Shown in pieces: positions 38,348-62,797 of a DNA stretch of 64,000 nucleotides (the first letter of the stretch is position 1; the number at the start of each line of letters is the position of its first letter). The stretch is taken from assembly GCA_964547015.1 (NCBI GenBank), contig CAZJKT010000003.1, positions 1,154 to 65,153 on the forward strand, read 5' to 3'. Under the pieces are notes generated by a model. The model did no database searches. It was not told where the DNA came from and worked only from the letters and a program-made list of their open reading frames with translations. A program made the position numbers and the translations under genes. This DNA comes from an uncultured archaeon (GTDB lineage: Archaea > Aenigmatarchaeota > Aenigmatarchaeia > QMZS01).

Positions 38348-39463
38348 CTAAGCAATAATCCCATAGGTAAAGCCGGCAAGTGCCGAATAGAATATTACTA
38401 AGGCTATATAAATTGCAGTTTTCTTTGAGCCGATAATTCCCCTTATTACAAGCATATTAGGCAAGCTCAATGAAGGTCCCGCTAAAAGCAGGGCAAGCGC
38501 GGGGCCTGAAGACATACCTTTTGCAATAAGAGCCTCAAGTATTGGGATTTCTGTCAGTGTTGAAAAATACATGAAGCCCCCGAACAAAGCGGCGGCAATA
38601 TTTCCGGAAATAGTATTCTCTCCGACAAATCCCTGAATTGCAGAATCCGGAATAAGAGGCATCACAAAACCGGCTACAAAAACACCTATAAAGAGAAGGG
38701 GCAGTATCTGCTTTGAGAGCGCCCATGTTTCTTCCAGCCACCCGTTTCTCAACTCCTTAGAGAACCTAAAGGCGGCTATACTTATTACGCCAAGGGAAAG
38801 TATGCCTATCAAAAGATATTTAAGGTTGTGGGCTATTGAAATTCCGTTTATTACAAGGATTCCAATCATAAGCGCAAAGAAGATAAGTATCAGCTTTCCC
38901 GAAACACTGCCTGTGTCAGGGCTGTGGTTAATGAATGTCCCGTTATGGAGGTCTTCCCTAAATATAATGCTCATTGTCATGCCTATAATAACCGACAAAA
39001 TTATTGCAGAAATTATCCTTGCAAGCCCTATTTCAAATCCGAGAACGCTCATTGTAAGGAATATTGCGGCAATGTTTATTGCGGGCCCGGCAAAAAGAAA
39101 TGTTGTTGCAGGCCCAAGCCCGGCCCCTCTTTTCCTTATCCCCGCAAACAAAGGAAGAATTGTGCATGAACATACAGCAAGAACCGTTCCTGAAACAGAA
39201 GCCACAGCATAAGATATGCTTCTTTTTGATTTTGGGCCGAGGTATTCAAGGACCTTATCCTTTTGGATTAGTGTTGCTATGGCCCCCGCAATAAAAAATG
39301 CGGGAACAAGGCAGGTAAGGATATGGAGCTTTGCGTAATCAATTAGCAGGTATACTCCGCCAAGCACAGATTCCTCAAGCCAAGAGCTTTCTAAAGGCGC
39401 TAGATAAAACATTAAAAATACCGCAATAAAACCCGCCAAAATTTTTATCTCTTTTCTATCCAT
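38348..39463 (-). CDS. DUF318-family permease (ArsP-like putative organoarsenical/thiol permease)
   Basis: Conserved LAVCSCTILP (the CSC...P signature of DUF318/ArsP) in a polytopic membrane protein. Confidence 0.7.
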   Translation of the reverse strand: MDRKEIKILAGFIAVFLMFYLAPLESSWLEESVLGGVYLLIDYAKLHILTCLVPAFFIAGAIATLIQKDKVLEYLGPKSKRSISYAVASVSGTVLAVCSCTILPLFAGIRKRGAGLGPATTFLFAGPAINIAAIFLTMSVLGFEIGLARIISAIILSVIIGMTMSIIFREDLHNGTFINHSPDTGSVSGKLILIFFALMIGILVINGISIAHNLKYLLIGILSLGVISIAAFRFSKELRNGWLEETWALSKQILPLLFIGVFVAGFVMPLIPDSAIQGFVGENTISGNIAAALFGGFMYFSTLTEIPILEALIAKGMSSGPALALLLAGPSLSLPNMLVIRGIIGSKKTAIYIALVIFYSALAGFTYGIIA

Positions 39464-39464
39464 T

Positions 39465-40178
39465 TTAAATCACCAGCAAAGCAATATAATATATTCCAAG
39501 GGCTATAAAAACTCCGGATACAATCTTTCGCATCCATTCATCAAAGGCCTGTATCTTATTCATTGCGCTCCCCAGCCTGGATGCGCTATATGCAAGCATT
39601 AAGGAAAATATAATTACAGGTAAGCCTGTCGATACGGCAAATACCGCGGGTATAATTATTCCGTCTCCTGCGCTTAGCGCAAGGGGGATGAGCATCCCAA
39701 AAAAAAGCACGGCGCTAAACGGGCAGAACGCAAGGGCAAAAACTATTCCAAGCCCAAAAGCCCCGGCATAACCTTTTTCGGCCAGCTTTTCTTTGAGGGG
39801 GCCAAATCTTGAGCCGCAAGAAATTTGGGGAAGGCCTATTTTTCCAAGCATCACAAGCCCGGCAATTAAAAGGAAGGGCCCAAGCAAAAACTCTCCGTAT
39901 TTCTGAAGGAAAATGGCGGCGCTTTGCATATTTATCCCGGCATAGACTATCAGAGAAGCAAGAGCCACATAAGTGAGCGCCCGCCCCAGTGTATATGCAA
40001 CCCCCGCCCTTACAGTGTGTTTATTATTGCCTATTTTTTTTGAAACATAGCCTATTGCCGCAATATTTGTAGCCATTGGGCAGGGGCTTATTGCCATCAT
40101 TATGCCTATAAAAAAGGCCGCTACAAGCGCAATTTCACTTGAGCCCAAAGATTCCAATATAGGCATTAAATTTATCAT
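39465..40178 (-). CDS. CcdA/DsbD-family transmembrane thiol-disulfide transporter
   Basis: Cysteines in the TM helices (ISPCPM and AFCPFS) and six TM segments. Confidence 0.55.
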   Translation of the reverse strand: MINLMPILESLGSSEIALVAAFFIGIMMAISPCPMATNIAAIGYVSKKIGNNKHTVRAGVAYTLGRALTYVALASLIVYAGINMQSAAIFLQKYGEFLLGPFLLIAGLVMLGKIGLPQISCGSRFGPLKEKLAEKGYAGAFGLGIVFALAFCPFSAVLFFGMLIPLALSAGDGIIIPAVFAVSTGLPVIIFSLMLAYSASRLGSAMNKIQAFDEWMRKIVSGVFIALGIYYIALLVI

Positions 40179-40651
40179 GCTCCAACAAACTTTCTGTTTA
40201 TAAGTTCTCCAAGATAGCTCTTATAATCTTCGGGATCCCCTATTTTATACCAAACCTGAATATTTTCCTCTTTCTTAAAAGCGCCATCTCCATAGTAGGT
40301 TCCGATATATAATGAAGAGCCTCTTGCCCCGTATCTGCCAACTATTTCCCTGTTATCCTCCAAGTCTATGTTAATATGGCCAAATACAATCTTACCCGAT
40401 TCCAGCTCTTTGGGAAAATAAGCCTTGACTGTTTCTTCTGCAAGTTCCCCCAGCCTTATGCAGGAATAGCATTGCCGGGAAGAATGGAAGTGATATACTT
40501 CAATTTTAGACACACCCTGAAAATCTGAGGGGGGGATTAATTCTTCCTGAGACCTTACAAATTGCCCCGTTTGGTCTGATTCACTGAGGCAGCCAGAAAA
40601 TGCAATTATGGCAAAAAGGATAGTAAGGCAGAGAGCAAGGCGGTATTTCAT
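40175..40651 (-). CDS. Lipoprotein with a CxxC motif (thiol-redox, extracytoplasmic)
   Basis: Signal peptide with a lipobox-like FSGC, and a CYSC motif. Overlaps ccdA by 4 nt. Confidence 0.4.
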   Translation of the reverse strand: MKYRLALCLTILFAIIAFSGCLSESDQTGQFVRSQEELIPPSDFQGVSKIEVYHFHSSRQCYSCIRLGELAEETVKAYFPKELESGKIVFGHINIDLEDNREIVGRYGARGSSLYIGTYYGDGAFKKEENIQVWYKIGDPEDYKSYLGELINRKFVGA

Positions 40652-40652
40652 A

Positions 40653-40883
40653 TTACCGGAGCCACCCCAAAATTTCTTTGGCCTCAGGAATCCTGCCTGA
40701 AGCCTTTACTTCTCCATCTATAACGATTGCCGGCGTTGACATCACACCAAAGCTGATTATTTCGTTGATATCCGTCACTTTTTCTATCTGAGCTTTTGCG
40801 CCCGCTTCTTCAACTGCTTTTTTTGCATTCTCCATAAGCTTTTCGCATTTTTGGCAACCCGTTCCAAGTATCTCAATAATCAT
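40653..40883 (-). CDS. Small thioredoxin-like protein (redox-active disulfide protein 2 type)
   Basis: [13 protein letters not shown]...[15 protein letters not shown] is a roughly 76-aa family that commonly partners with DUF318 permeases. Confidence 0.7.
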
Positions 40884-41653
40884 ATTTTAGAATCTTTTTT
40901 GGAGGCGATTAATTTCAGGCTCTCAACAGGAAAACCTCCATATTGTCTGTCGCTGATATCCTTATCCTCAGAGAGCACCTTTACTTCAAATCCCGCATCC
41001 TCCATAAGTTTGAGGTATCGCTCTTTCAATATCGCCCCACCTATACAGCTTGCTATTAGATTACTGTCTTTCCTCCGGCTTTCAGACAATTCTGATAAAA
41101 GCGCCATATCGGAAATAAACATTTTCCCATCGGGTTTAAGTACCCTATAGGCCTCCTGAAACACCCTTGACTTATTGGGCGAGAGGTTTATCACGCAATT
41201 GCTCATAATTACATCCACTGAATCATCTTCAATGGGAAGATTCTCTATTTCACCCTGCCGGAATTCAACATTCTTGTAACCATACTTTTTTGCGTTTTCT
41301 TTTGCCAGTTTCACCATCTCATCGGTCATATCTACCCCAAGAACTTTGCCTGTGTTGCCAACTTTTTTTGCTGCAAGAAAGCAGTCAAAACCGGCCCCGG
41401 AGCCAAGGTCCAAAACAGCCATTCCCTCCCGGATTTCGCCAAATGCAGTTGGATTTCCGCACCCAAGCCCAAGATTGGCCTCCGGCACATTAGTTATTTC
41501 TTCCTCAGAATAGCCAAGAGATTTTGCTAAAGTTTCGGCATCTGCTTGGCCGCAATTGCACGAACAGCCACAGCCTTCCAGCGCCACTTTAGCATAACTT
41601 TTTCTTACAATTTCCTTAATGAACTTTCCTTTGCTGTTTGAATTAACTTCCAT
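40880..41653 (-). CDS. arsM: Arsenite S-adenosylmethionine methyltransferase (ArsM-like)
   Basis: N-terminal Cys cluster [21 protein letters not shown] motif [16 protein letters not shown] and SNCVINLS. Confidence 0.75.
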
Positions 41654-41702
41654 ATATATTGATAGCCATAAATATTTATATAATCATAGATATTTATAAG
41701 CC

Positions 41703-42353
41703 TTAAAGCTCAATCTCGGAAATTTTGGGATTTAGGGAGTACAGGTGAGGGGCGCGAAATTTCTTGGATTTAGCTAAGCCTTCCATTGGTATAATCAGCT
41801 GGTATGTGGGCTTAAAATCCTTCCAGTCAACTAATAGAGCCTCATTGAGTCCCGCAGATTCGGCTTCTTCGAGAGTTTGGTGATATACCAGATTTTTAGC
41901 TTCGGGAATAAAATCGCTTGCAATATTATATTCAATCGCTGTGTGTATATTCATAGAAGCTATTTCTGAGATATCAACAAGCCTTTTTTGATCCCCTGCC
42001 AGGGTCAGGCCTTCTCCGATTCGCCTCTCATATGAATCTAAAGCTTCGCAGGGATAGGCTTTCCTTCCTATGAGGGCTATCTCTATTTCGGAATTTTCCA
42101 GCTTTCCGAGAACTTCGTTTGCGTAACGGTATTCAACAATTGAAATGCCTTCATTTTTCTTGGCAATATTTTCAGCCTCCGCTCTCATCGTGGGGCAATA
42201 GCCAAGCAATATCTGAGGCTTTTCAGGCTCTTTCATATCCGCGCTTTTGTTATTTAGGGGGTTATCCTGAGGCTCTGAATTTGAGAGGGCGCTCAACGCA
42301 AAAGATACTATTAGCAAAGCGGATACGGCCAGAGCTAAAAAAGCGGCTTTCAT
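41703..42353 (-). CDS. Secreted or anchored hypothetical protein
   Basis: N-terminal signal or TM segment. No motif recognised. Confidence 0.35.
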   Translation of the reverse strand: MKAAFLALAVSALLIVSFALSALSNSEPQDNPLNNKSADMKEPEKPQILLGYCPTMRAEAENIAKKNEGISIVEYRYANEVLGKLENSEIEIALIGRKAYPCEALDSYERRIGEGLTLAGDQKRLVDISEIASMNIHTAIEYNIASDFIPEAKNLVYHQTLEEAESAGLNEALLVDWKDFKPTYQLIIPMEGLAKSKKFRAPHLYSLNPKISEIEL

Positions 42354-42374
42354 AATAGATGCCTGCCAGGGTTT

Positions 42375-43382
42375 TTAATGATTCGGGCGTTGAGAGCAAA
42401 AAAGATATGTATGGTACGCTGCTCTCACCCCATCAGCGGCGGCGGTTATTGCCTGCTTTGGGGAGTTATCCGTAACATCGCCCGCCGCAAAAAATCCGGG
42501 AAGGCTTGCGGCGCAGTTTTTGTCAACAACTACTTCCCCTTTAGAGTTTACTTTTACTCCGGCTTTTTTCGCAAGGCTGCTTTTTGGATCCCTGCCTACA
42601 TATATAAAAAGGCCATCGACATCAAGCCTGTTTTGCCCCTTATAGGGATTTTTGAGGATTATTTTTTCAAGCCTTTCGTTACCTTCCAACTTGACAGCCT
42701 CATTATCGCTTATTATTTCAACCTTTCCGCAGGATACAAGCGGCTCAATTTTTTTTAGGTTAGTAGCTTCCGCCCTAAAAGACCTGTCCCTGTTTATAAT
42801 GCAGATCTTTTTTGCATGCTCCGAAAGCAAAATAGCCTCTTTTATGGCGCTGTCCCCGCCCCCGGCAACCGCCGCAACCTTGCCTTTAACTTGGTTGAGG
42901 TCGCAGAGCGCGCAATAGCTCACCCCTTTTCCAAAAAATTCATCTTCGCCCGGAATATTGAGCTTTCTTACTTTTGCCCCTGTTGCAAAAATTACTGACT
43001 TTGAAAAAAATTTGCTCTCCCCCGATACAACAGTAAATTCTTCTTTCTTCCTGTCAAAAGAAATATCCTCAGCAATATCAGTCAGGAAATCTGAATGGTA
43101 ATCCCTTGCGTGGCTTTCAAGAAGAGATGCAAGCCTGCCGCCATTAATTGACACAAATCCGGGATAATTCTCAATCTCGCTTGTAAGCCCCACCGTCCCT
43201 CCGGGAACTTCGCCGATGCAAAGGACACTCAGGCCCAGCCTGCCACAGTACATTGTAGCCGCATAGCCGGCCATTCCCGCTCCAACTACAATAACATCAT
43301 ATTTCTTATTAGAATTTGGAACGCCCGGATATTTTTGCCTCGGCTCAAAAATTATCCCCTCGCAAACAGGGCATTCCTTCAT
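42375..43382 (-). CDS. trxB: Thioredoxin-disulfide reductase (TrxR-like FAD/NAD(P) oxidoreductase)
   Basis: FAD-binding VIVVGAGMAGYAA, redox-active SYCALCD and the C-terminal GDV motif. An N-terminal CxxC extension (MKECPVCEG) is present. Confidence 0.75.
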   Translation of the reverse strand: MKECPVCEGIIFEPRQKYPGVPNSNKKYDVIVVGAGMAGYAATMYCGRLGLSVLCIGEVPGGTVGLTSEIENYPGFVSINGGRLASLLESHARDYHSDFLTDIAEDISFDRKKEEFTVVSGESKFFSKSVIFATGAKVRKLNIPGEDEFFGKGVSYCALCDLNQVKGKVAAVAGGGDSAIKEAILLSEHAKKICIINRDRSFRAEATNLKKIEPLVSCGKVEIISDNEAVKLEGNERLEKIILKNPYKGQNRLDVDGLFIYVGRDPKSSLAKKAGVKVNSKGEVVVDKNCAASLPGFFAAGDVTDNSPKQAITAAADGVRAAYHTYLFCSQRPNH

Positions 43383-43386
43383 AGTA

Positions 43387-44733
43387 TTACCTCAAAAGAT
43401 GCGGGAAAAATAGCATCACAATACCCACAATAAACATTACAACCCCTCCTATCAGCTTGCAGGCTTTGGCATACTTTTGGATATGGGGGCTCCCTATGGC
43501 TAGCGCGGCCATACCGAATATAATTATTTGGTCGAGCATAAAGAAAAATACATAAGCCGCTATGTAGAGATAATAATGCATACCGCTAAGCCCGCTTAAT
43601 GCAAGCACTTGCGTATATACCACTGGAAGGGCCGCAGAGCAGACAAACTCAACCGAATTTACTATAAATGCGAGCGCAACAATGGAGAAAAATACCGGGA
43701 TGGACAGGGGCCTTGCAACAATATTTTGCACCCGGTCCATTGTTTTCTGATGGCTTTTTTCATCGCCGACTTTGCAGGTGAGGTCCCCCTTAGTTGTAAA
43801 ATATTCCTTAAGGCTCAGTATTCCGCCGGCAAGCGCAATAAGGCCTATAAAAATTGAGACTATTCTTATATAACCGATTATTAAAAATAGATTTAACCAT
43901 GCGGCCATCAGAAGGAAATAGATAGCACCTGAGGCAAAAACAAAAGTCCCCACAATAAGCCATATTTTTTTCCTGTCGTTTAGCCCGATTATCAGGCTTA
44001 TTAGGAATATAAGGACCCATAGCGCGCACGGATTAAATCCGTCAACAAGCCCGAGAACAACAGTAAGAACCGGCAGGGAATAAGCAGTGAGATCACGCTC
44101 ACCAATAAAAGGTATATTAAAATTCCTTACATCATAACTTAAGCCCTGAGCCCTTTCTGAATGTTGGGCTTCCCCCTTGCATTTTGCTAGGCACTCCTCA
44201 ATAGCTGAACTAATCTGCTCTTTGCTATGAAATCCTACCAAAACCGTTTCTTTAATAAATATTGTTGGCACCCCAAGCCGGCCGGGATCAAGCCCCGCTT
44301 CTTCTGCTAACTGCCTGAAAAATGCCGAACCTTGCATAGTTGAAGCATCATGTTCATAAAGCGCAATCTCAGGGTAGTTTTCCATTACCCCATATAATAT
44401 GGGCTTTTGCTGGGCGCAGTAAGGGCATGAAGGTGTATAGAAAAGATGAACTGCATGCTCTTCAGGGTCATATACGGGCGGGCCGTCGTCTACCCCAAAC
44501 CAAGCTATAAAGCCTAAAATAACCAACAGTAAAAAGAGCCCGCAATTGAATCTTGAACTAAAAAATCCCCTGATTGCAGAAACGGTCCCGGATATTTTAT
44601 TTTTCGGCTTTTGGGCGCATTCTTCTCCGCTTCCCTTTTCTTTGGCATCTCCTTCGGTATTTTCTGCGCTATCTTCTTCCTTTAACAGGGCATTTTCCTT
44701 TTTCCCTAAATCCCTCCTTCTTTTCTTAGGCAT
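43387..44733 (-). CDS. Fusion protein: N-terminal glutaredoxin/thioredoxin-like CPYC domain joined to a polytopic DsbD/CcdA-like membrane domain
   Basis: TPSCPYCAQQK in the soluble domain, and GFNPCALW plus FVCSAALP in the TM region. Basic N-terminal tail. Confidence 0.5.
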   Translation of the reverse strand: MPKKRRRDLGKKENALLKEEDSAENTEGDAKEKGSGEECAQKPKNKISGTVSAIRGFFSSRFNCGLFLLLVILGFIAWFGVDDGPPVYDPEEHAVHLFYTPSCPYCAQQKPILYGVMENYPEIALYEHDASTMQGSAFFRQLAEEAGLDPGRLGVPTIFIKETVLVGFHSKEQISSAIEECLAKCKGEAQHSERAQGLSYDVRNFNIPFIGERDLTAYSLPVLTVVLGLVDGFNPCALWVLIFLISLIIGLNDRKKIWLIVGTFVFASGAIYFLLMAAWLNLFLIIGYIRIVSIFIGLIALAGGILSLKEYFTTKGDLTCKVGDEKSHQKTMDRVQNIVARPLSIPVFFSIVALAFIVNSVEFVCSAALPVVYTQVLALSGLSGMHYYLYIAAYVFFFMLDQIIIFGMAALAIGSPHIQKYAKACKLIGGVVMFIVGIVMLFFPHLLR

Positions 44734-44772
44734 ATTCTTTTCCGGGGCAGTCGCCCAAATAAAATTCTTTGG

Positions 44773-45012
44773 TCATTTTATATCTAAAGCCTCTTTCATT
44801 TTTTTGATGTCATAACCTACAATCATCTTTCCGCTAATCTCAATTACAGGAACATTAGATTGCCCGCTTTTTTTTTCCATATAGGATTTTGCCTTTTTAT
44901 CTTTAGATATATCTACCTCCTTTACTTCAATACCCTTTTGGATAAGGAAATTTTTTGCAAAAAGGCAGTAGGGGCAGACCGGCGCAGTATATAATATCGC
45001 TTTTTGTTTCAT
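44773..45012 (-). CDS. grx: Glutaredoxin
   Basis: CPYC active site in a 79-aa protein. Confidence 0.85.
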   Translation of the reverse strand: MKQKAILYTAPVCPYCLFAKNFLIQKGIEVKEVDISKDKKAKSYMEKKSGQSNVPVIEISGKMIVGYDIKKMKEALDIK

Positions 45013-45314
45013 AATTCATGCACCTCTAATAATACTTCACCTTTTTTTCCTTTTAATGCCCCTATACCTAAAACATCAAATATCCCGTAAACCTTTGGGT
45101 TTTTTATGCCATATATTATCCTGCGGCCCTCCCTTCTTGATGCAAGTATTCCTGCGGCCTCAAGACGAAGCAAATGGGCCGAAACTGTTGACTGCTCTCT
45201 TCCTGCGTGAGGGATTATTTCGCAGACGCATTTCTCTCCGTCAAGAAGGAACCTTATTATTTTGAATCGGGTTTCATCCGAGAGCGCCTTTAGAAGCATA
45301 AGCTCGTTTTCCAT
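45009..45314 (-). CDS. arsR: ArsR/SmtB-family metalloregulatory transcriptional repressor
   Basis: LSDETRFKIIRFL (HTH) and the metal site EKCVCEI. Confidence 0.85.
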   Translation of the reverse strand: MENELMLLKALSDETRFKIIRFLLDGEKCVCEIIPHAGREQSTVSAHLLRLEAAGILASRREGRRIIYGIKNPKVYGIFDVLGIGALKGKKGEVLLEVHEL

Positions 45315-45376
45315 AGATATATTATATTGATAACTATAAATATGTTGGGGAAGTTTTAGCGTGTAGAAATTTAATT

Positions 45377-45682
45377 GTGTATTGGTTTATGAGGATTGCC
45401 TGCAAAGTATTTTTCGGCCCGCAGATTTTGCTTGCCGCATGCGACGAGAATTTGCTTGGAAGAACGCTTAGGTTTGGGGAGGCGGAATTTGAGGTAAAAG
45501 AGAGCTTCTACTTTGAGAGGTTTGCGCAAGAAGAAGAGTTTGAAGGCCTGATCCCAAAAGCCCATATAGTCAACCTTTTGGGCGAGCATACAATAGGGGC
45601 TTTGGCAAAAAGAAACCTACTAAATACAGATAATGTTAAACTTATAGATGGGGTCCCCCACATCCAGATTTATAGGATTTAA
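45377..45682 (+). CDS. Hypothetical small protein, doubtful
   Basis: 101-aa ORF upstream of, and overlapping, the surface-protein start. Confidence 0.2.
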   Translation: MYWFMRIACKVFFGPQILLAACDENLLGRTLRFGEAEFEVKESFYFERFAQEEEFEGLIPKAHIVNLLGEHTIGALAKRNLLNTDNVKLIDGVPHIQIYRI

Positions 45683-47564
45683 AAATTCCTTTTCGGCCAC
45701 CCTGAGAGGCAAAAAATTCCATAAAGGCCAGTGGTATATTGTGGCGGCAGTGCTTTTCTCCTACTCTCTTCTCACTTTTTTTGACATATTTGACAGTTAT
45801 ACTCAGATAGATTATACCTCTATAATAAAAAGCGACGAGGATATGCTCTACCTTGATGCAATGAGAGATATACAATATATTACTTCAAAGGCGACAGATA
45901 TCTCAAATATGGAGGGTGATGTTGCAGAATATCTTGAGATGGTTAACGGAAACCTGCTTGGCAAAGGGATGCTTGTGGAATATTCTTTTTCCTCTTCAGG
46001 GGGCATAATGAGCCTCTCTGAGCTTAAGTTTGCCGGAAAAAACCTTAGAGTGGAATTGCCTACAGAATCGGAATATTGTATTCCTGAAGACAATAATCAA
46101 TTTTGTTACAGACACGGGAAAAATTGCGGCACATTCACTTCCACTGACAATTGCGGGGAGCCAAGGACTGCCAATTGCGGCACCTGTACTTCGCCAAATA
46201 CCTGCGGAGGCGGAGGCGTTCCTAATATCTGCGGATGCTCACCTTCCACATGCGGCTCTCTTGGCAAAAACTGCGATACCTGGCCTGACGGCTGCGGAGG
46301 GACACTGAACTGCGGAAGCTGTTCTTTTGGATATAGCTGTATTGAGGGCATCTGTGAATATACCTGCGTCCCTGAAAACGATACCGAATTCTGTTCGAGA
46401 TACGGGAAAAATTGCGGCACATTCACTTCCACTGACAATTGCGGGGAGCCAAGGACTGCCAATTGCGGCACCTGTACTTCGCCAAATACCTGCGGAGGCG
46501 GAGGCGTTCCTAATATCTGCGGATGCTCACCTTCCACATGCGGCTCTCTTGGCAAAAACTGCGATACCTGGCCTGACGGCTGCGGAGGGACACTGAACTG
46601 CGGAAGCTGTTCTGCAGGATACAATTGCATAAATGGAGTATGCACCGTGGGCTGGTGTTATAGAATGCCTATTACACTTACAAATGGGGGAGGGCCACTT
46701 ACAAGCTATGCCATAAAAATAGATGTCGCATATGTTCCCGGAAAAATGAAGGCCGACTTCTCTGACATAAGGTTTACTTTGGCTGATGGGACCACTCAGC
46801 TTTCGCACTGGAGAGAATCCTATGTTGCAAGCTCTTCTGCGGTTTTCTGGGTTAAAGTAAACTCAATACCGTCGGGAAGCTCAACGATATATGTGCACTA
46901 TGGAAATAGCGCGGCAAGTTCGGCAAGCAATGGAGATAACACCTTTTTGTTTTTTGATGATTTTGCGGGAACTTCTCTAAATACAGCTAAATGGATTCCA
47001 CAAACATCCGGGGCAGGCACAATAACCGTAAATAATGGAATTACGCTTAATAACCCTAACTTAAATTCAGATACCGCCCTTATCTCCCTTAGGAATTCGG
47101 GGGCACATTGTGTTGTAAGGGGCGCAAACATAATAGAATTTTATGGCCGACTTATCCCTAACCCAAATAGTGGGTTTGGTTTTGCCCTTTTTGTTGCGGA
47201 TTATTCAGCACCTGTAAGATATATATCAATATCCCAACTTAGCGTCAGCAATACTATGAGAATAACAAACCAGGCGGGTCCTGGCTCTTACAGCTCAAGC
47301 ACACTAGGAAGTTTTACCTCTGATATGGCCAGATGGAAATTTTATGGTGACGGCTCTTCCACCCATGTTTATATTAACGACAACCACCAGTCTTTTTCCT
47401 CTGTCTATCCTACAGGTATGGTTTGCCAGACCGAAATAAGTGTGGGGCCGAGAACAAGCGGAGGGAGAAATCCGAGACAGGTTTATTTATCCTGGTTTGT
47501 AATCAGAAAATTTTCAAATCCAGAGCCCACCGCCACTATCGGAGCTGAACAGAATGTATGCTAA
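45648..47564 (+). CDS. Surface/secreted protein with an N-terminal TM anchor, two identical Cys-rich 96-aa repeats, and a C-terminal DUF2341 plus LamG/concanavalin-like domain
   Basis: Repeats of NCGTFTSTDNCGEPRTANCGTCTSPNTCGGGGVPNICGCSPSTCGSLGKNCDTWPDGCGGTLNCGSC. The DUF2341-like start WCYRMPITLTNGGG...YAIKIDV. A hydrophobic helix at residues about 28-46. Confidence 0.6.
   Translation: MGSPTSRFIGFKNSFSATLRGKKFHKGQWYIVAAVLFSYSLLTFFDIFDSYTQIDYTSIIKSDEDMLYLDAMRDIQYITSKATDISNMEGDVAEYLEMVNGNLLGKGMLVEYSFSSSGGIMSLSELKFAGKNLRVELPTESEYCIPEDNNQFCYRHGKNCGTFTSTDNCGEPRTANCGTCTSPNTCGGGGVPNICGCSPSTCGSLGKNCDTWPDGCGGTLNCGSCSFGYSCIEGICEYTCVPENDTEFCSRYGKNCGTFTSTDNCGEPRTANCGTCTSPNTCGGGGVPNICGCSPSTCGSLGKNCDTWPDGCGGTLNCGSCSAGYNCINGVCTVGWCYRMPITLTNGGGPLTSYAIKIDVAYVPGKMKADFSDIRFTLADGTTQLSHWRESYVASSSAVFWVKVNSIPSGSSTIYVHYGNSAASSASNGDNTFLFFDDFAGTSLNTAKWIPQTSGAGTITVNNGITLNNPNLNSDTALISLRNSGAHCVVRGANIIEFYGRLIPNPNSGFGFALFVADYSAPVRYISISQLSVSNTMRITNQAGPGSYSSSTLGSFTSDMARWKFYGDGSSTHVYINDNHQSFSSVYPTGMVCQTEISVGPRTSGGRNPRQVYLSWFVIRKFSNPEPTATIGAEQNVC
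46114..46613 (+). repeat. Perfect tandem direct repeat, period 288 bp; the two copies are identical over about 212 bp
   Basis: Block 46114-46325 is repeated exactly at 46402-46613, inside the surface-protein gene. Confidence 0.85.
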
Positions 47565-56596: not shown

Positions 56597-59500
56597 TTAG
56601 CTTACTCCAACTTTCTCAAACAAACGAGATAGGTAATCCCTATCGCTGGTCAAATAGATTCCCCGACTCTCCGGGTCATTTAGAATATCTTGACTTAATT
56701 GCTCCTTGGGTGTTTGAGAGACAATAAAGGAGTATAGCTCAAAAGCCTCATCTGGATGCTTCTCCCTTAGATTACGCTCAATTGCCTTGACATATTTGTG
56801 GAAATTAATTTTTTCCCAATCCACATGGTTAAGACCCTTGGGATCAATAAAAATAATCTTTTGTTTCGTGTCTTCCAGTATCCACAAAATGAAGTCCGGG
56901 TAGAAGAGTTCAGTCTCAAGATAATAACCATAGCCGATTCCCTCATGATTTCTGAGAAGAACCACCTTTCGACCACCAATATCCTTTCTTTCCAGAAATA
57001 TCCTCAAGGCATCAATAAACGATTTTTCGCCGTCATTTAGTCCAGCAGGATGAAAGGTGTAGCTTGCAGTCCCCCCCTCCTGTGCCACAAGAAGAGGATA
57101 ATAAGCGTGCTTGTCAAATCTGACACAAAGCTTATTCAGAGCATTTTTAGAGCCAGGCGTATCCTCCAAAACGGTCTGAATATCGTCAAAATCTATTATT
57201 CTGGACTTGGTTTTGAGAACTGCCTCCAAAACACCTCTTATTCGTTCATCTACGCTTCCTTTAATCGCGCCTTTCTCGTCGGTAAATATCTTCATCTGAC
57301 AGGTAGTTGGGACTTTGGACTCAGAAAGCTTTGCAAGAGACATTCTCTTCTCATAGTATCGCCGCAAGGCAAGAGAGTAATTTTTGTTCATTGCTTTCGT
57401 TATGACCTCAAGGTATGCTCTCTCCAATAGGGTCCTGGCAACAGAAATATCTTTTCTAGCATTAAGATATGCCATATCCCCATAGACAGATACCATTGCG
57501 TCGTTCGAAACCAAGTAGTTTTTTAGTTCTTCGGCGGAGCAAAGAGAAAGATTTTGATAGTTCTTGACACGTTTGTGTCGCCTCAACTCGGTGAGAAGTC
57601 TTTCCCAGTCAACTAAATCCAAATATTCTTCAGTAAAGATTGGGCAGGATTCGGGGCGGGTTTTTGGAATGTCCTTAGAATCAGAAGTCTTGCTATTCAT
57701 CGCAGTTATGTGGGGATTAAGATCCAGCCTTATTTCTGTCGCAAATGGGAGCATAGATACCAATTCCGTTCGTCGGAAACTGCCCTCCACATCCCTCTCA
57801 CGCTCAATACAAAGTAGGTCACTAAACTTAACCGAATCAGGCATTCTCAGGTGGATATTTATCTCCTTTTCAACGTAGAATTCAATGTCTTCTGCAAGCT
57901 CCTCTCTAAATGCCTCCATATAGCTGGCATCTATCCCAAAAACATTAAGGGTTTCAAGAAGGGGGAGGTATTTTTTCAGCTCCCCACTAATCGGGCGGAG
58001 GTCTTTTGAACTGCGCTTCATGCTGTTCTTGTAGCCGTGGATGCGAACGCCTCGCCCAAACAGCTGTATGGCCGAAACTCCCCGGGTTTTCGCAAAATTC
58101 ATCAAAAGCATAGAAGAAATTCGGTAATTGTCCCAGCCCTCTATGAATTTCTTTGCACCGATAAGGACATTCACGGGTTGCTCTTTGGGTGTACTCAGTG
58201 CCTTAAATTGTGACTTTGAAATAGAATTTGTGCGTTGCCGTACAGTATTCAGTTCTTTGTTTGCAGTCTCCTTCGCTTTCTTTAGGATTTTCTTGTCATT
58301 TCCCTTTCCTACATAAATCAGCCCAAAATAGGTAGCATCCGAGTCCCCATATTTAAGCCCGATTTCGCCGTCAGAATCATGAATGTCTTCCATCACAAGA
58401 AGCGAGTCATTGTAACCGGAGTAAAAGACCGTTTTGAACAAATCATCAAAAAGCGCTTTGGTGTCGTTCTTAAAGGTATTTTGAAGAAGTTCTCTCAAAT
58501 AGGGGAAATGATCCTGGAAGAGCGGGTTTCCCCGCTCATCCTTAAGAGGCAAATTTCCAGAAACCAAAAAATTCTCAATCGCCTTGAGGTAATGCTCCTT
58601 TTTCAGCTTCAGGCGGTTAAGGAATACCACAAATTTGAAGATGTCTGAGCTTATTTTTTCGTCCAGATTGTCCTTATCACTCTCCACTACTCTCGACCCC
58701 ACAAGAATCCAGAGCGGGTTTTCGATAAGGTGGGTAGTTTCTGCTTCCCTGCGATTTTCGAGGAAAAGCTTTTTTTGCTGATAAAATGAGAGTAGATTGC
58801 CGAGCATTATGTTTTTCTCGTACTCGTCTTGCTTGCCCACATTTGAGATGAAATAATCCTTGCCATAGCCCTCCTTGTGGTAATATTTGTAGGAATAGTC
58901 AAAAAGGATGGTTTTCTTGTAATCTTTGGCTTCCTTTTTTTTCCCCACATCCCTGAATGTAGCGCTGTACTCCATCGTAAAGCCTTCCTTTGCAACCTTA
59001 GAGCGCATTTTAAGCCAGGCGTTTCCGCTTGCGCCCCTATGTCCCTCATCCACCAAAATCAGGTTTTTATCGCCAAAGGCGCGATAACTGATCGTTTTGT
59101 CCTTTGTAGTTTCGGACAGCTTGTTAATGTCAATAATTTTTATCGCCTTTCTGACAAAATTGTCCTTTTTTGCCATTATTGCCCTAAAACCCGACTTTTC
59201 AAATTCCTTTAGGTGCTGGCGTGACAAATCTTCGTTAGGGGTTATTAGGATAATGTTGTTTATCTCCTGGCGGTATTTCTCGGCGTAGTGCAGGTATTGG
59301 TGGATGTTTATATGCATCACAAGGGTTTTTCCTGAACCCGTTGCCATCCAGTAGCACAGTTTTTCTAGGTCGTCCTGGAGGTAATCATCAATATCTGTGT
59401 ATTTTTCCGGGATGTTGTTTTTTCCCTGATTCAGAAATTCGATAAACTCCCCAAGCTCCTGCTCTTCCTTCTTTTGGAAGTACAAATCGAGGTAAATTTC

Positions 59501-59833
59501 GGTTATAAGGAGAGCGGCATACTGAAACACCTTAAACACGATTTCCCTCTTGCCGTTGATTTTGTCGATATGGTCTTTGATATTGAGGTCATATTCCCTC
59601 AGTTTTGCTTCATCAAGGATATTATAGGGGTAAGGCACATTTATCGCCCCAAAATAGTCCAAAATCGCCTTCATGAAGTTGCTCTGGTCGGACTCGAATT
59701 TGTACTCAAAATCCGCCTTTTCCTTTAGAAAGTCGATAAATTTGCAGGTATCGTCAAAACCCAGGCACCTTGGCAGAATCTTTGGAAGGACCAAAGACGC
59801 GCTCAAATTCTCATTAATCTCCTTTTTTACCAT
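56597..59833 (-). CDS. Res-like restriction enzyme subunit: SF2 helicase/ATPase with a putative C-terminal PD-(D/E)xK nuclease (Type III Res-like), 1078 aa
   Basis: Helicase motif I WMATGSGKTLVMH, motif II ILVDEGHRGASG and motif VI QLFGRGVRIHG. The C-terminal FYPDFILWI...KIIFIDPKG is consistent with a PD...(D/E)xK nuclease. The start overlaps the upstream methyltransferase stop by 7 nt. Confidence 0.7.
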   Translation of the reverse strand: MVKKEINENLSASLVLPKILPRCLGFDDTCKFIDFLKEKADFEYKFESDQSNFMKAILDYFGAINVPYPYNILDEAKLREYDLNIKDHIDKINGKREIVFKVFQYAALLITEIYLDLYFQKKEEQELGEFIEFLNQGKNNIPEKYTDIDDYLQDDLEKLCYWMATGSGKTLVMHINIHQYLHYAEKYRQEINNIILITPNEDLSRQHLKEFEKSGFRAIMAKKDNFVRKAIKIIDINKLSETTKDKTISYRAFGDKNLILVDEGHRGASGNAWLKMRSKVAKEGFTMEYSATFRDVGKKKEAKDYKKTILFDYSYKYYHKEGYGKDYFISNVGKQDEYEKNIMLGNLLSFYQQKKLFLENRREAETTHLIENPLWILVGSRVVESDKDNLDEKISSDIFKFVVFLNRLKLKKEHYLKAIENFLVSGNLPLKDERGNPLFQDHFPYLRELLQNTFKNDTKALFDDLFKTVFYSGYNDSLLVMEDIHDSDGEIGLKYGDSDATYFGLIYVGKGNDKKILKKAKETANKELNTVRQRTNSISKSQFKALSTPKEQPVNVLIGAKKFIEGWDNYRISSMLLMNFAKTRGVSAIQLFGRGVRIHGYKNSMKRSSKDLRPISGELKKYLPLLETLNVFGIDASYMEAFREELAEDIEFYVEKEINIHLRMPDSVKFSDLLCIERERDVEGSFRRTELVSMLPFATEIRLDLNPHITAMNSKTSDSKDIPKTRPESCPIFTEEYLDLVDWERLLTELRRHKRVKNYQNLSLCSAEELKNYLVSNDAMVSVYGDMAYLNARKDISVARTLLERAYLEVITKAMNKNYSLALRRYYEKRMSLAKLSESKVPTTCQMKIFTDEKGAIKGSVDERIRGVLEAVLKTKSRIIDFDDIQTVLEDTPGSKNALNKLCVRFDKHAYYPLLVAQEGGTASYTFHPAGLNDGEKSFIDALRIFLERKDIGGRKVVLLRNHEGIGYGYYLETELFYPDFILWILEDTKQKIIFIDPKGLNHVDWEKINFHKYVKAIERNLREKHPDEAFELYSFIVSQTPKEQLSQDILNDPESRGIYLTSDRDYLSRLFEKVGVS

Positions 59834-62796
59834 AAGCGCTTCCTCATTTCATCATAGATGTTACGGTAATTTTGTGAAACGAGACTGTCGCAGCTTATGA
59901 AAACTTCCTTGTATTTATCTTCCAGGAGCTTGTCCATGAATTTGCCGGCGGCTTTCTTTTCCTCGTCGTCCCTGCACGGAGGTCTCCAGATCGCTATGGC
60001 TTTTTCGCCTTTGTACCTGCCCTTTACGACAAAATATTCAGCGCCGTTGTCCTCCAGTTTCTCCATTTTGTCCACATCAAGCCCCATCAGGTAAATAAAT
60101 GTCTCGATTAAGTCCACGGTTTTTTCTGTTGTGGCACCGTCAATTTTCAGGTCAGAACCGCCCGACTCGTTCAAAACCTTGATTTTTAAATCAAGGTGCT
60201 TGTCCTCAGTGTCCACTCCAAGGAAATTCCCGGATTTGCCCTTGTCTATGCCATTTTGGAGCATGTATTTCAAAACATCGCCCTTTTGGTCGTAGAATCG
60301 GTTCAAATCCATCTGTTTGAAGACCACATTTTCAAGGGCGTCCTCGTACTGTTCCATTTCGTGGTACTTGAAAAAGCCGCCAATTGAATCCATATCCTGC
60401 GGCTTGCCGTCCTTCCAGTTTAGGGAGTAGAGCACTTTCTTTATCCTTGGATTGAGGACGGTATGAAAATAATCGCCCATTTCGACAAGGATGAATTTTC
60501 TCTTTCCTTTGTCCTCCTTGTTTAGAGAGATTACTGCATGTCCGGTTGTTCCTGAACCTGCGAAGAAATCCAGATTCACAGAGGCATCATTCATTGTCGC
60601 ACCAATCAATTGCTCATACAACGAAACGGGATGGCAATATGGAAAAAATAAATCCATACCATCTAAAAAATATTTACCACTTTTTGCATCTTTAATCACA
60701 GACGAAAGTTGTCGCTTTGAGTCAGAATCAAGATATACTTTTTTTTGTGGCTGAGTAGAATGATCTTCACCCCACAGGATTTCATCGTCATCTATCATCT
60801 TTTTCAGAGTTTCGGGTGTGCGAGACCAGCCATTGGTTGGGATAGGACAAGGTTTTTTTGTTTTGGGATGTATCAAAGGTATGTGGAATTTTGGGTCGGA
60901 CCTATATTCGGGGGCACCCATAGCAACTCCACGAAAAACTCTGCCATCATCTTCAAGAAGTCTATATGCTTTCTCACCTCCCGTGAGATCTGTTTGAGAA
61001 ATTATCCACCTTGAAAATTCTCTCCGTGAATCATCATTAACTCCACCCGAAAGCTCGATAAACCGCTTTGCATGCTCAATAATACTCAATACGGCACTAT
61101 TACGCATATAGACAGGTCCACTAAATTTGGAACGCCAAAGAATGTACTCGTGTTGCGTAGCGATTCCTTGTCTACCTAACATGGGATTCTTTTTATCCCA
61201 AATTATTGTTCCTCTACTAGGTAAACCAAATCTATCCAACATTACAAATAAAACCTCATATTCATTTTCATCGATATGACATTGAAAGACACCCTCCAAT
61301 GATAAAACCTTGGCAGACGATTCTACACACTGAGACATAAGAGATAGCCAACTTGAATGCCTGTAGTTGTTTTTATAAAGAAAACCACTAGTTTCAGTAT
61401 TATATGGAGGATCAATGTGTATGCAAGTTACCCTTTCTCTGTACTTCTCCTGCAAGAGATTGAGCGCCTGCCAGTTCTCGGAATGAATCAAAATCCCGTC
61501 AAGTTTCTCGTCAAGCCCCTCGATTTGCCCCAAAATCCTCCATTTGAAGCTATTTGAGAAGTTTTTAGTGTCAAGGGGCAGTTTTCTCCACTTGCCGTTT
61601 ATTTTAAGGTCGTCTTTGCCCTTGACCTCAATCCCAAAAAGGGCTTTCCACTCGGAAATCTGGGTCTTATTTGACAAGATTTCCGGAACAATTTCCTCCA
61701 AGAAATTTTCCCCGCAAAACTCTGAAATCTTGTCCAGAGTGATTACATAGTGGCTCTCCAAAATGAATTTCTTCTTCTCCCAGACTTTTTTCTTGAGATT
61801 CTCCAAAGCGTCGAGCTTCTCGATTATATTCTTCGAGACATCCTTGAAGACTTTTGCGACGATTTTGCGGTTCTCGCTAAAATTGCCCTTATCGTCAATA
61901 TAATCGTCCACATGCACGACTTCCTGATTTAAGTAAAAATTGAGTTGCCCTCTCAAAAACCCGCCCAGATTCTTGTGGATAAAATAATCCTCCTTGTACT
62001 TTCTCTGGAATTTGTTCAAAATGCCCTCCAGGCCCTCAATTTCGCCAACGGTCTCCAAAATCTTTGAAATCGCCTGCAAATTGAGGGCTTTTTGAATTTC
62101 TGCCTGATTCTTGCCAAGCTCCTTAAGCTCGTCTGTGACAAAAACCCGCTCAAAATTCACCTTAAGTTCGCCGTCATCCTCAATCGGGTTCTCCTCAGAA
62201 AGCATAAAACAGGTCATTCCTCCCTTCTGGTTTCCCTTTTTCTCCTCGACCTTGACCACCCGCAAAAGCACCGTGCGCCCGTTTGCCTCGAAACTGAAGC
62301 GGGAGTATCGCTCAGAAGTCTTAATATAATACATATCCTTTGTCACCCAGTGCAAATCTACCTCAGAGCCGTCATAAGGGATGAGATAAGTGCCCTCTTT
62401 GAAATAAAACTGCGAGATAAAATCGCCGTCCTGATAATACCTTGAAAAGAAATTTACAAGGTGCTTGTAAATCTCATCAGTAATATCGCCAATTGTGCCA
62501 ATTTCTTTCTTCTTTGCCAGCAAATCCTGGTATTTTTTAGAGTCCTCCAAAGAAACGCCGGCTTCGGTAAGGGTTTTTCTAAGCTCAGAAAGCTCTTTTT
62601 CAATGTCCTCGCCAAACTCCTTCCTGATATTGAGAATCCCGGTTTTCACAAGCACGGAAAGCTCCTTTTCGACAAATGCGTCGATTTCCTCATTTTTCTG
62701 CTTCATCAGGCGATAGACCCCAAAATCAAGGTCTTTATCGTCAGACCGAAACATTTCTCTTAACTGCTTTTTCAAACGGTTAAATGATTCATCCAT
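59827..62796 (-). CDS. Beta-class N6-adenine DNA methyltransferase (Type III Mod-like) with an N-terminal domain of about 450 aa of unknown function
   Basis: Motif IV CIHIDPPYNTE precedes motif I DFFAGSGTTGHAV (beta-class permutation). The ORF track starts at 62892. I prefer the internal Met (MDESFNRLKK, about 62796), which abuts the stop of the upstream gene. Confidence 0.7.
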   Translation of the reverse strand: MDESFNRLKKQLREMFRSDDKDLDFGVYRLMKQKNEEIDAFVEKELSVLVKTGILNIRKEFGEDIEKELSELRKTLTEAGVSLEDSKKYQDLLAKKKEIGTIGDITDEIYKHLVNFFSRYYQDGDFISQFYFKEGTYLIPYDGSEVDLHWVTKDMYYIKTSERYSRFSFEANGRTVLLRVVKVEEKKGNQKGGMTCFMLSEENPIEDDGELKVNFERVFVTDELKELGKNQAEIQKALNLQAISKILETVGEIEGLEGILNKFQRKYKEDYFIHKNLGGFLRGQLNFYLNQEVVHVDDYIDDKGNFSENRKIVAKVFKDVSKNIIEKLDALENLKKKVWEKKKFILESHYVITLDKISEFCGENFLEEIVPEILSNKTQISEWKALFGIEVKGKDDLKINGKWRKLPLDTKNFSNSFKWRILGQIEGLDEKLDGILIHSENWQALNLLQEKYRERVTCIHIDPPYNTETSGFLYKNNYRHSSWLSLMSQCVESSAKVLSLEGVFQCHIDENEYEVLFVMLDRFGLPSRGTIIWDKKNPMLGRQGIATQHEYILWRSKFSGPVYMRNSAVLSIIEHAKRFIELSGGVNDDSRREFSRWIISQTDLTGGEKAYRLLEDDGRVFRGVAMGAPEYRSDPKFHIPLIHPKTKKPCPIPTNGWSRTPETLKKMIDDDEILWGEDHSTQPQKKVYLDSDSKRQLSSVIKDAKSGKYFLDGMDLFFPYCHPVSLYEQLIGATMNDASVNLDFFAGSGTTGHAVISLNKEDKGKRKFILVEMGDYFHTVLNPRIKKVLYSLNWKDGKPQDMDSIGGFFKYHEMEQYEDALENVVFKQMDLNRFYDQKGDVLKYMLQNGIDKGKSGNFLGVDTEDKHLDLKIKVLNESGGSDLKIDGATTEKTVDLIETFIYLMGLDVDKMEKLEDNGAEYFVVKGRYKGEKAIAIWRPPCRDDEEKKAAGKFMDKLLEDKYKEVFISCDSLVSQNYRNIYDEMRKRLW

Positions 62797-62797
62797 T

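Follow-up and report, generated by a model that had tools for sequence, protein, structure and literature searches.

Ten consecutive genes on the minus strand of the 64-kb stretch of archaeal DNA analysed here (contig CAZJKT010000003.1; "the window" means the whole of this stretch) probably make up an arsenic-responsive regulon of a DPANN archaeon, arranged as two adjacent five-gene units with the same putative repressor site. Unit 1 is arsR-grx-trxTM-trxR-sec216 and unit 2 is arsM-arsE-arsF-arsG-arsP, where trxTM encodes a membrane protein with a thioredoxin domain (TrxTM), sec216 a 216-aa extracytoplasmic protein (Sec216) and arsP an ArsP_1-family permease. The initial annotation of this region had listed ten consecutive minus-strand genes, and all ten open reading frames are present at its coordinates and are essentially of the kinds that it named. 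Its proposal that the arsenic genes are wired to a dedicated thiol-reducing system gains support from a common palindrome 5' of arsR and arsM and from the recurrence of the combination on other DPANN-type contigs.

The block is close-packed, with 4-nt overlaps at arsR/grx, arsM/arsE and arsF/arsG and gaps of 1-49 nt elsewhere. Its proteins were assigned to families by Pfam and NCBIfam profile searches. The motifs EKCVCEI of ArsR, VLDLGSGAG of ArsM and VCSCTILP of the permease were all found.

A common palindrome in front of the two units

Comparison of the upstream regions of arsR homologues revealed a palindrome of 7-6-7 layout, ATATTGA-N6-TCAATAT (type 1), with an everted form, ATATCAA-N6-TTGATAT, in some loci. 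At one mismatch or fewer, the type-1 palindrome occurs exactly twice in the 64-kb window against 0.01 expected, and 0 of 100 shuffles reached two. The block has only two gaps of promoter size, and each of them holds one copy. The operator-like palindrome O1 (45324-45343, minus strand, ATATTTATAGTTATCAATAT) overlaps a TATA-like TTTATA and ends 9 nt 5' of the arsR ATG; this 20-bp site lies upstream of 45314, where the initial annotation had suggested looking for ArsR operator palindromes. O2 (41656-41675, minus strand, ATATTTATGGCTATCAATAT) is located in the 49-nt gap between sec216 and arsM, after TTATATAAATA, and ends 2 nt 5' of the arsM ATG. Each palindrome overlaps or abuts a TATA-like box, the centre of which is about 24-25 nt 5' of the ATG. 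Such a spacing would fit leaderless transcription in archaea and a repressor that blocks initiation. A generic inverted-repeat scan 5' of arsR, with a minimum arm of 8 nt, did not report the operator, the arms of which are 7 nt long. Scans for sigma-70 promoters and intrinsic terminators gave chance-level results, as expected in an archaeon. Because the same palindrome lies, within the window, only upstream of arsR and arsM, the most plausible reading of the block is a pair of five-gene units controlled by one ArsR, with a predicted shared operator and a second unit without its own regulator.

In 1.38 Mb of loci fetched for comparison (designated by L and a number), only 7 matches to the type-1 palindrome were found, of which 2 belong to a copy of this locus (L001) and others to L004, L013 and L095. 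The type-1 palindrome is also located just 5' of arsR in L004, L013 and L098, and the everted form just 5' of arsR homologues in L003, L082, L099 and L100. The copies 5' of arsR in L098, L099, L100, L003 and L082 are perfect. In L095, a second operator-like site, of type 1, precedes arsE, which comes after ArsR-Grx-TrxTM-TrxR.

The regulator (arsR, 45314-45009, minus strand, 101 aa) is an ArsR/SmtB repressor, as the initial annotation had read from its KCVCEI site. It matched HTH_5 (PF01022) at 4.9e-13 and NF033788 with 83.6 bits (cut-off 55), and the solved structures closest to it are ArsR-family regulators. C29-V-C31 of EKCVCEI stands in the alpha-3 position, and the CxC is retained in 12-13 of 14 homologues. 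We take this CVC to be the counterpart of the ELCVCDL-type alpha-3 site of R773 ArsR. Repressors of the R773 type bind As(III) at the alpha-3 CVC, the classical As(III)/Sb(III) site. One alpha-3 cysteine is gone in the ArsR homologues of L094 (YAC) and L088 (AVC), and a C-terminal CC or CCC is found in such relatives (L094, L088, L003), which suggests that the metalloid site may have shifted within this ArsR clade. L088 (1030-8522) also has a one-mismatch palindrome just 5' of the gene of a 1423-aa protein with two acyl-CoA dehydratase activase-type modules; the genes behind it encode ArsR, a DGC-domain protein, an SBF-family transporter, an OsmC-like protein, a Sec216 homologue and a CDF transporter.

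The redox and arsenic genes are combined on at least three other DPANN-type contigs. The gene order is operator-ArsR-Grx-TrxTM-TrxR-Fer4-ACR3-ArsM-ArsE-ArsP-ArsF-ArsG in L099, with ACR3 at 458.7 bits (cut-off 282.8); operator-ArsR-Grx-TrxTM-TrxR-ArsM-ArsE in L100, with 3 nt from the trxR stop to the arsM start; and operator-ArsR-Grx-TrxTM-ArsP-Fer4-P-type ATPase-ArsM-ArsE in L098. Grx-TrxTM-TrxR is a fixed trio in close DPANN relatives and is often led by ArsR (L003, L094, L095). We also fetched 80 genome loci for TrxTM alone, independently of ars genes. ArsE/ArsP genes, some with ArsR and ArsF/ArsG, were located within 5 kb of TrxTM in 7 of the 80, which belong to Micrarchaeota, Aenigmatarchaeota, Woesearchaeota and Dehalococcoidia. 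They abut the TrxTM gene in L002, L013 and L060, and the cassette is divergent from it at 190 nt in L064; L060 and L064 contain complete ArsR-ArsE-ArsP-ArsF-ArsG cassettes. In at least 9 loci from several phyla, TrxTM has a TrxR-like gene beside it.

The two units could also be unrelated neighbours, a housekeeping envelope thiol operon with an ArsR-family redox or disulfide sensor beside an ordinary arsenic operon, with no wiring between them. ArsR-Grx-TrxTM-TrxR does occur alone in L094 and in contigs of the L003/L095 type, the trio occurs in L096 without ArsR, and most of the 80 sampled loci of the very large TrxTM family are without an ars gene; moreover, ArsR-family members such as BigR respond to non-metal signals. 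However, the same rare palindrome lies 5' of both units, and unit 2 has no regulator, whereas the ArsE/ArsP cassettes examined elsewhere each follow one, usually of the ArsR family. L099 and L100 have the combination as one operon, L098 has it as well, and in L095 an operator and arsE come after the redox genes. The shared operator and the recurrent synteny make a chance adjacency unlikely.

Arsenite methylation and the ArsE-ArsF-ArsG-permease cassette

The first gene behind O2 (arsM, 41653-40880, minus strand) encodes a 257-aa ArsM of the short prokaryotic form. It scored 315.4 bits with NF008823 (cut-off 263) and carries VLDLGSGAG as its S-adenosylmethionine (SAM) motif. C65, C153 and C203 align residue by residue with C72, C174 and C224 of CmArsM (PDB 4fr0/4kw7), and the SAM fold is likewise common to the two proteins (CmArsM of Cyanidioschyzon merolae, PDB 4fr0/4fs8). 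C65, C153, C203, C32 and C34 are invariant in 17 close homologues, and C28 and C30 are nearly so. The N-terminal C28/C30/C32/C34 cluster is situated 31-37 residues before C65, and local alignments to the solved structures stop short of it; it is of the bacterial type, as in prokaryotic PRK11873-type ArsM. In contrast to CmArsM, the window protein has no algal C-terminal domain and has four N-terminal cysteines (CGCSCNC) where CmArsM has the single C44, the fourth cysteine, which forms the catalytic disulfide. A generic UbiE-type methyltransferase, which the initial annotation had named as the alternative to its own assignment, was ruled out by the As-binding cysteines aligned to CmArsM. ArsM turnover requires a thiol reductant, either thioredoxin with thioredoxin reductase or glutathione.

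ArsM homologues at 65-76% identity are abundant in metagenome-assembled genomes (MAGs) named Woesearchaeota, Nanoarchaeia, Micrarchaeota and Diapherotrites. The initial annotation had considered the gene set unusual for a reduced-genome archaeon; with ArsM this common in DPANN MAGs and the combination conserved, that view does not hold.

The four genes that follow belong to an already known cassette. ArsE (40883-40653, minus strand, 76 aa) is a small MTH895-type thioredoxin-like protein with C10-Q-K-C13, which scored 109 bits with TIGR00412 (cut-off 62) and 1.7e-28 with PF13192 and matched MTH895 itself (1ilo) at 1.8e-15; its CxxC is retained in 10 of 10 homologues. ArsF (40651-40175, minus strand, 158 aa) is a lipoprotein with the lipobox FSGC (C21) and C61-Y-S-C64. 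It scored 103.9 bits with NF040494 (cut-off 60) and has a weak thioredoxin similarity (E 0.037) that places its CxxC on the thioredoxin active site; C21, C61 and C64 are retained in 3 of 3. ArsG (40178-39465, minus strand, 237 aa) is a CcdA/DsbD_2-type membrane protein with 280.4 bits for NF040495 (cut-off 200) and 1.5e-20 for DsbD_2, and its C33 (SPC) and C152 (FCP) are both retained in 5 of 5. The initial annotation had the kinds of these proteins right, as a thioredoxin-like protein, a CxxC lipoprotein and CcdA, but did not recognise the named ArsE, ArsF and ArsG families. Together they repeat the three-part layout of the CcdA/DsbD/ScsB pathways, in which electrons pass from thioredoxin through CcdA/DsbD, the family of ArsG as a DsbD_2 member, to a periplasmic thioredoxin-like protein.

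The last gene of the block (39463-38348, minus strand, 371 aa) encodes the permease, which the initial annotation had called ArsP-type and which is a member of ArsP_1 (PF03773; 252.6 bits, cut-off 32.3, residues 35-368). C98-S-C100, in a membrane helix, is retained in 12 of 12 homologues. The ArsP/SaoE/SO_0444 transporter family has CSC as its hallmark (Haft, bioRxiv 10.1101/2022.07.06.499078). PF03773 membership and the membrane-helix CSC are common to the window permease, ArsP of Campylobacter jejuni and the organo-arsenical exporters of TCDB, and C. jejuni ArsP exports methylarsenite, MAs(III), and trivalent roxarsone (PMC6205960). From this family membership we infer that methylarsenite may be the export substrate. 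The window permease lies beneath the equivalog cut-offs of SaoE and SO_0444, the two subfamilies with models in the comparison.

ArsR-ArsE-ArsF-ArsG-permease is annotated on pFA1 of Fulvitalea axinellae, with an E-F-G-permease order identical to that of the window, and a plasmid of Prevotella nigrescens carries ArsF-ArsG-Trx-permease followed by ArsC and ACR3. The window cassette shares the families and passes the curated ArsE, ArsF and ArsG cut-offs. Unlike the known cassette, it has no regulator of its own, has arsM first behind a second operator, is joined to Grx/TrxTM/TrxR and resides in a DPANN host. In six loci (L013, L022, L046, L072, L082, L093), ArsE stands beside the permease while ArsF and ArsG are absent, so that the permease is probably its primary partner, which ArsE may serve as reductant or chaperone.

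The permease bears on a second explanation, by which the block is a general soft-metal or thiol-stress regulon: the permease would export another thiophile (Cu, Zn, Cd, Hg or an organometal), the CVC repressor would sense that species and ArsM would be an add-on. The top NCBIfam models for the permease are SaoE (putative metal efflux) and SO_0444 (Cu/Zn efflux), both reached at scores far below cut-off and both sharing the CSC; Sec216 homologues are found with CDF, SBF-family and TehA/SLAC1-type transporters under ArsR-like regulators; and a P-type ATPase is encoded inside the L098 cluster. That ATPase, however, scores as a proton-type rather than a heavy-metal pump. ArsM, whose gene comes first after the second operator, exceeds its curated cut-off and has all of the As-binding cysteines, a true ACR3 is present in the homologous L099 cluster, and ArsC and ACR3 accompany the Prevotella cassette. 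The alpha-3 CVC is the classical As(III)/Sb(III) site. We regard a general soft-metal role as improbable.

The third explanation takes the cassette at its published role. ArsEFG of Shewanella putrefaciens, in the 2019 work of Chen, Zhang and Rosen, is said to provide nitro-group reduction and efflux of aromatic arsenicals, with an efflux role reported for ArsG and a resistance role for ArsE and ArsF. If this applied here, ArsE and ArsF would act on trivalent roxarsone or nitarsone by reducing its nitro group, ArsG would export the amino product, and the block would serve mainly in aromatic-arsenical resistance. The window proteins do pass NCBIfam models named after that work, which is the paper cited for these roles. 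Their anatomy, on the other hand, is that of a relay from thioredoxin through CcdA to an extracytoplasmic thioredoxin-like lipoprotein, in which all redox cysteines are conserved. Uncultured DPANN, Micrarchaeota and Dehalococcoidia in natural samples widely carry the cassette, and its native substrate there is unlikely to be a synthetic nitroaromatic feed additive; the occurrence of ArsE and permease without ArsF/ArsG in six loci makes the permease seem the primary partner. A role of the Shewanella kind is, in our judgement, quite unlikely in this archaeon.

Thiol-redox and envelope proteins of unit 1

The second gene of the block (grx, 45012-44773, minus strand, 79 aa) encodes Grx79, a small, cytoplasmic, glutaredoxin-like protein with C13-P-Y-C16. 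It matched PF00462 at 7e-17 and, with 75.6 bits, is under the cut-off (88.55) of the YruB-type TIGR02196; the CxxC is retained in 10 of 10 homologues. In DPANN relatives grx is always directly 5' of the 448-aa gene.

The trxR-like gene (43382-42375, minus strand, 335 aa) encodes a low-Mr thioredoxin-reductase-like flavoprotein with two dinucleotide folds (Pyr_redox_2 at 5.9e-45). Its top solved relative is TrxB-3 of Sulfolobus (3f8p, 7e-58), with the CSVC of which C157-A-L-C160 aligns; this CxxC is retained in 7 of 7. The PF00462 and Pyr_redox_2 matches agree with the glutaredoxin and thioredoxin reductase of the initial annotation, the latter as a TrxR-like protein below the TIGR01292 cut-off. 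The DPANN clade of reductases shares an N-terminal extension of about 25 residues with a conserved I(I/L)xEPRxKY (residues 1-27 of the window reductase). That an N-terminal CPVC (C4, C7) might be a further redox or zinc site was rejected, as only the window protein has it. Small 2x[4Fe-4S] ferredoxins are encoded after TrxR in L099 (8515-8880) and after ArsP in L098 (7175-7531), with HgcB as their best, sub-threshold NCBIfam match. These ferredoxins are candidate electron donors for a reductase clade without the NADPH motif.

Arsenic operons with thioredoxin genes are known, in which arsT encodes thioredoxin reductase and arsX thioredoxin, for example arsRBOCT of Streptomyces pHZ227. The ten-gene block resembles them in having a TrxR-type flavoprotein and a small thiol-disulfide oxidoreductase alongside ars genes under ArsR. 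The arsT/arsX reductant serves the cytoplasmic ArsC, whereas the block has no ArsC, its likely cytoplasmic client is ArsM, and the system extends to membrane and extracytoplasmic thiol proteins.

TrxTM (44733-43387, minus strand, 448 aa) consists of a charged N-terminus, a single anchor helix, a thioredoxin domain and six helices. The one domain that can be recognised in it, at residues ~90-185, has a thioredoxin/glutaredoxin fold and, from the positively charged loops, would lie outside the cell. The invariant cysteines are C103/C106 (CPYC; CPxC in the family), C181/C185, C236 (DGFNPCA), C320, C365 (EFVCSAALP) and C425. In the AlphaFold2 model, of moderate confidence (pLDDT 66), the helices span residues 219-251, 254-286, 290-314, 345-379, 384-412 and 417-442, and helices 1 and 4 of the six break at the invariant C236 and C365. 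The family has at least 2277 matching proteins, from DPANN archaea, Dehalococcoidia, Desulfobulbaceae and some alphaproteobacteria, and at least 588 of 600 candidate stretches checked in species-representative genomes encode a TrxTM relative.

The initial annotation had called this protein a Grx-DsbD-like fusion. The thioredoxin domain stands, but the likeness to DsbD was not confirmed by Pfam, profile or fold comparisons. In 20 close and 10 distant members, searched up to E 10, the membrane domain gave no Pfam match apart from one member with DsbD_2 (E 0.93) and five with MntP (E 0.007 or weaker). With hhalign, TrxTM and the window ArsG gave non-significant probabilities of 0.3-5%, including a comparison of a 71-sequence membrane-domain alignment with a 6-sequence ArsG alignment. 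A global hhalign alignment puts C236/C365 on C33/C152 of ArsG, but its P of 0.002 is not significant, and no internal 3+3 repeat was detectable by hhalign. Foldseek against PDB and a PDB profile search with TrxTM were dominated by thioredoxin-domain matches. The external thioredoxin domain and the six helices with invariant cysteines in helices 1 and 4 are nevertheless alike to the CcdA/DsbD/ScsB pathways, and suggest a conduit of DsbD/CcdA-type layout. As the membrane domain matches no DsbD model, TrxTM would be DsbD-like in working at most.

In L082 (2488-10281; JGI sample 3300001336, contig ML7_10003331), a distant TrxTM relative of 527 aa with two thioredoxin-like regions heads a run of GcvH, a Grx-like protein, a dimeric Pyr_redox_2 flavoprotein, lipoyl synthase and lipoate ligase, after which comes Sec216-ArsR-ArsE-ArsP. 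This order suggests that a lipoyl-protein-based reductant may replace TrxR there.

The last gene of unit 1 (sec216, 42353-41703, minus strand, 216 aa) gave no family match in Pfam or NCBIfam. Sec216 is anchored and extracytoplasmic and has a two-lobed alpha/beta, type II periplasmic binding protein fold that matches solved binding proteins. The initial annotation had placed it correctly outside the cytoplasm as a secreted protein but had missed this fold. Members of the family have an N-terminal anchor or lipobox and an invariant Cys53 in GYCPTM; R97, E103, H137/T138, W177 and R200 are further invariant or near-invariant residues. The impression of an orphan with 2 homologues, left by a word-indexed search, was overturned by an exhaustive HMMER search that found 188 representative clusters, and a metagenome scan with a narrower alignment (A3) gave 7 loci. 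The Sec216 homologue of L082 is directly 5' of ArsR-ArsE-ArsP, the ArsP being 63% identical, and other homologues are in ArsR-family operons with SBF-, CDF- or TehA/SLAC1-type transporters. The SBF-family transporter beside the homologue in L088 was considered as ACR3 and rejected at 49.7 bits against a cut-off of 282.8.

SaoB and SaoX are substrate-binding proteins with cysteine or selenocysteine, for which extracellular binding of metals or organometals has been proposed (Haft, bioRxiv 10.1101/2022.07.06.499078). Sec216 is like them in its type II binding-protein fold with thiol(ate) ligands in the cleft. Unlike them, it has ~165 aa past the anchor, one invariant cysteine, no ABC transporter nearby and no detectable sequence relationship.

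It is possible, as a tentative proposal, that TrxTM represents an unrecognised class of transmembrane thiol-electron conduit, dedicated in DPANN with ArsE, ArsG and ArsF to arsenicals at the outer face of the membrane. By the same proposal, Sec216 would be a new cysteine-based extracytoplasmic arsenical binder and a client or partner of the relay, and the native role of ArsEFG would be envelope thiol chemistry and not nitroreduction.

Host, neighbouring genes and proposed working of the block

RtcB and a diphthamide synthesis gene are encoded in the window, and its valyl-tRNA synthetase falls into the same 90%-identity cluster as a protein of a Candidatus Aenigmatarchaeota MAG. The host, judged from these genes, is a DPANN archaeon (Aenigmatarchaeota-like), and "reduced genome" is taken from that membership. 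The locus occurs in identical form on other assemblies, with its proteins on 14 contigs (e.g. ENA ERZ27252285 k141_56899). Exact look-up of the ArsM product returned no record; other proteins of the locus do have records. The G+C of the ten-gene block (0.41-0.45) equals that of the rest of the 64-kb window, so nothing in the composition points to a recent import. No matches came from Rfam and tRNA scans of the entire window.

Downstream of the block, the same-strand run goes on with a 489-aa membrane protein and a GT2 glycosyltransferase, both unrelated. On the opposite strand, the island is adjoined by the gene of a 638-aa secreted protein (45648-47564, plus strand) with a DUF2341 domain after repeats. 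The repeats are two copies of a cysteine-rich module of ~95 aa, encoded by a 260-nt direct repeat (46083-46342 and 46371-46630) of 94% identity and 288-nt spacing; this 288-nt duplication was found by the direct-repeat search and not by Tandem Repeats Finder. Such a cysteine-rich surface protein could be next to an envelope thiol system by coincidence or not. A DUF424-family open reading frame (45377-45682, plus strand), divergent from arsR, shares 35 nt, in a different frame, with the start of the 638-aa gene, and start-codon choices there are uncertain. Further along, two overlapping minus-strand genes encode a 1078-aa ResIII/SWI2-SNF2-type helicase (56597-59833) and a 1021-aa N6/N4 DNA methylase (59827-62892), a pair that looks like a restriction-modification or defence system.

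The working of the block as an arsenic-responsive regulon can be outlined from sequence, family membership and gene context. ArsR would sit on the 7-6-7 palindromes at both TATA-like boxes and be released once C29/C31 have bound As(III) or a trivalent organoarsenical. ArsM would then methylate As(III). To our knowledge, archaea of this kind have no glutathione, and the disulfide of the ArsM catalytic cycle would for that reason be re-reduced by the co-expressed reductase/Grx pair. The trivalent product would be exported through the CSC of the ArsP-family permease, with ArsE, its constant neighbour, either keeping the CSC reduced or passing the arsenical on. Two relays would carry electrons across the membrane, one from ArsE through the CcdA-type ArsG to the ArsF lipoprotein, the other from the reductase through Grx and the membrane cysteines of TrxTM to its external CPYC domain. 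They would keep envelope thiols, perhaps Cys53 of Sec216, in a state for handling or resisting external arsenicals. The target of the external thiol proteins is the weakest step of this outline; upkeep of envelope or arsenical-handling cysteines is the favoured candidate.

Several points weigh against such a regulon. An external reducing system is not obviously protective, as trivalent arsenicals attack reduced dithiols. The best NCBIfam scores of the permease are with the models for putative metal efflux and Cu/Zn efflux, at 128 bits for SaoE (cut-off 325) and 116 bits for SO_0444 (cut-off 300), and the relay proposed for the window is not the role that has been published for ArsEFG. The reductase scored 279 bits with TIGR01292, under the cut-off of 343.45, and lacks the NADPH motif HRRxxxR; it has NRDRSFR instead, and most clade members have NNEKExHPE. 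Finally, in L094, the closest relative with an informative flank (Aenigmatarchaeota), ArsR-Grx-TrxTM-TrxR stands alone and is followed by phenylalanyl-tRNA synthetase genes, and L096 has Grx-TrxTM-TrxR without ArsR. The redox module thus exists as an operon by itself as well, and its role in the envelope may be a general one.

What is new here is the shared palindrome, the recurrence in DPANN-type contigs and the description of the TrxTM and Sec216 families; the other components are of known kinds. Minimal-genome, glutathione-free DPANN archaea often carry ArsM, and the locus suggests a source of reductant for it that would be co-regulated with methylation and export. A defined operator, two promoters and ten small genes would offer a genetic handle on the functions of the ArsE-permease and ArsF/ArsG pairs, the current view of which rests on a single study of synthetic aromatic arsenicals. 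The locus also flags two uncharacterised families, TrxTM and Sec216, and their neighbourhoods link both to the handling of arsenic or metalloids. The picture of arsenic resistance would thereby not be overturned but extended to the cell envelope and to understudied archaea.

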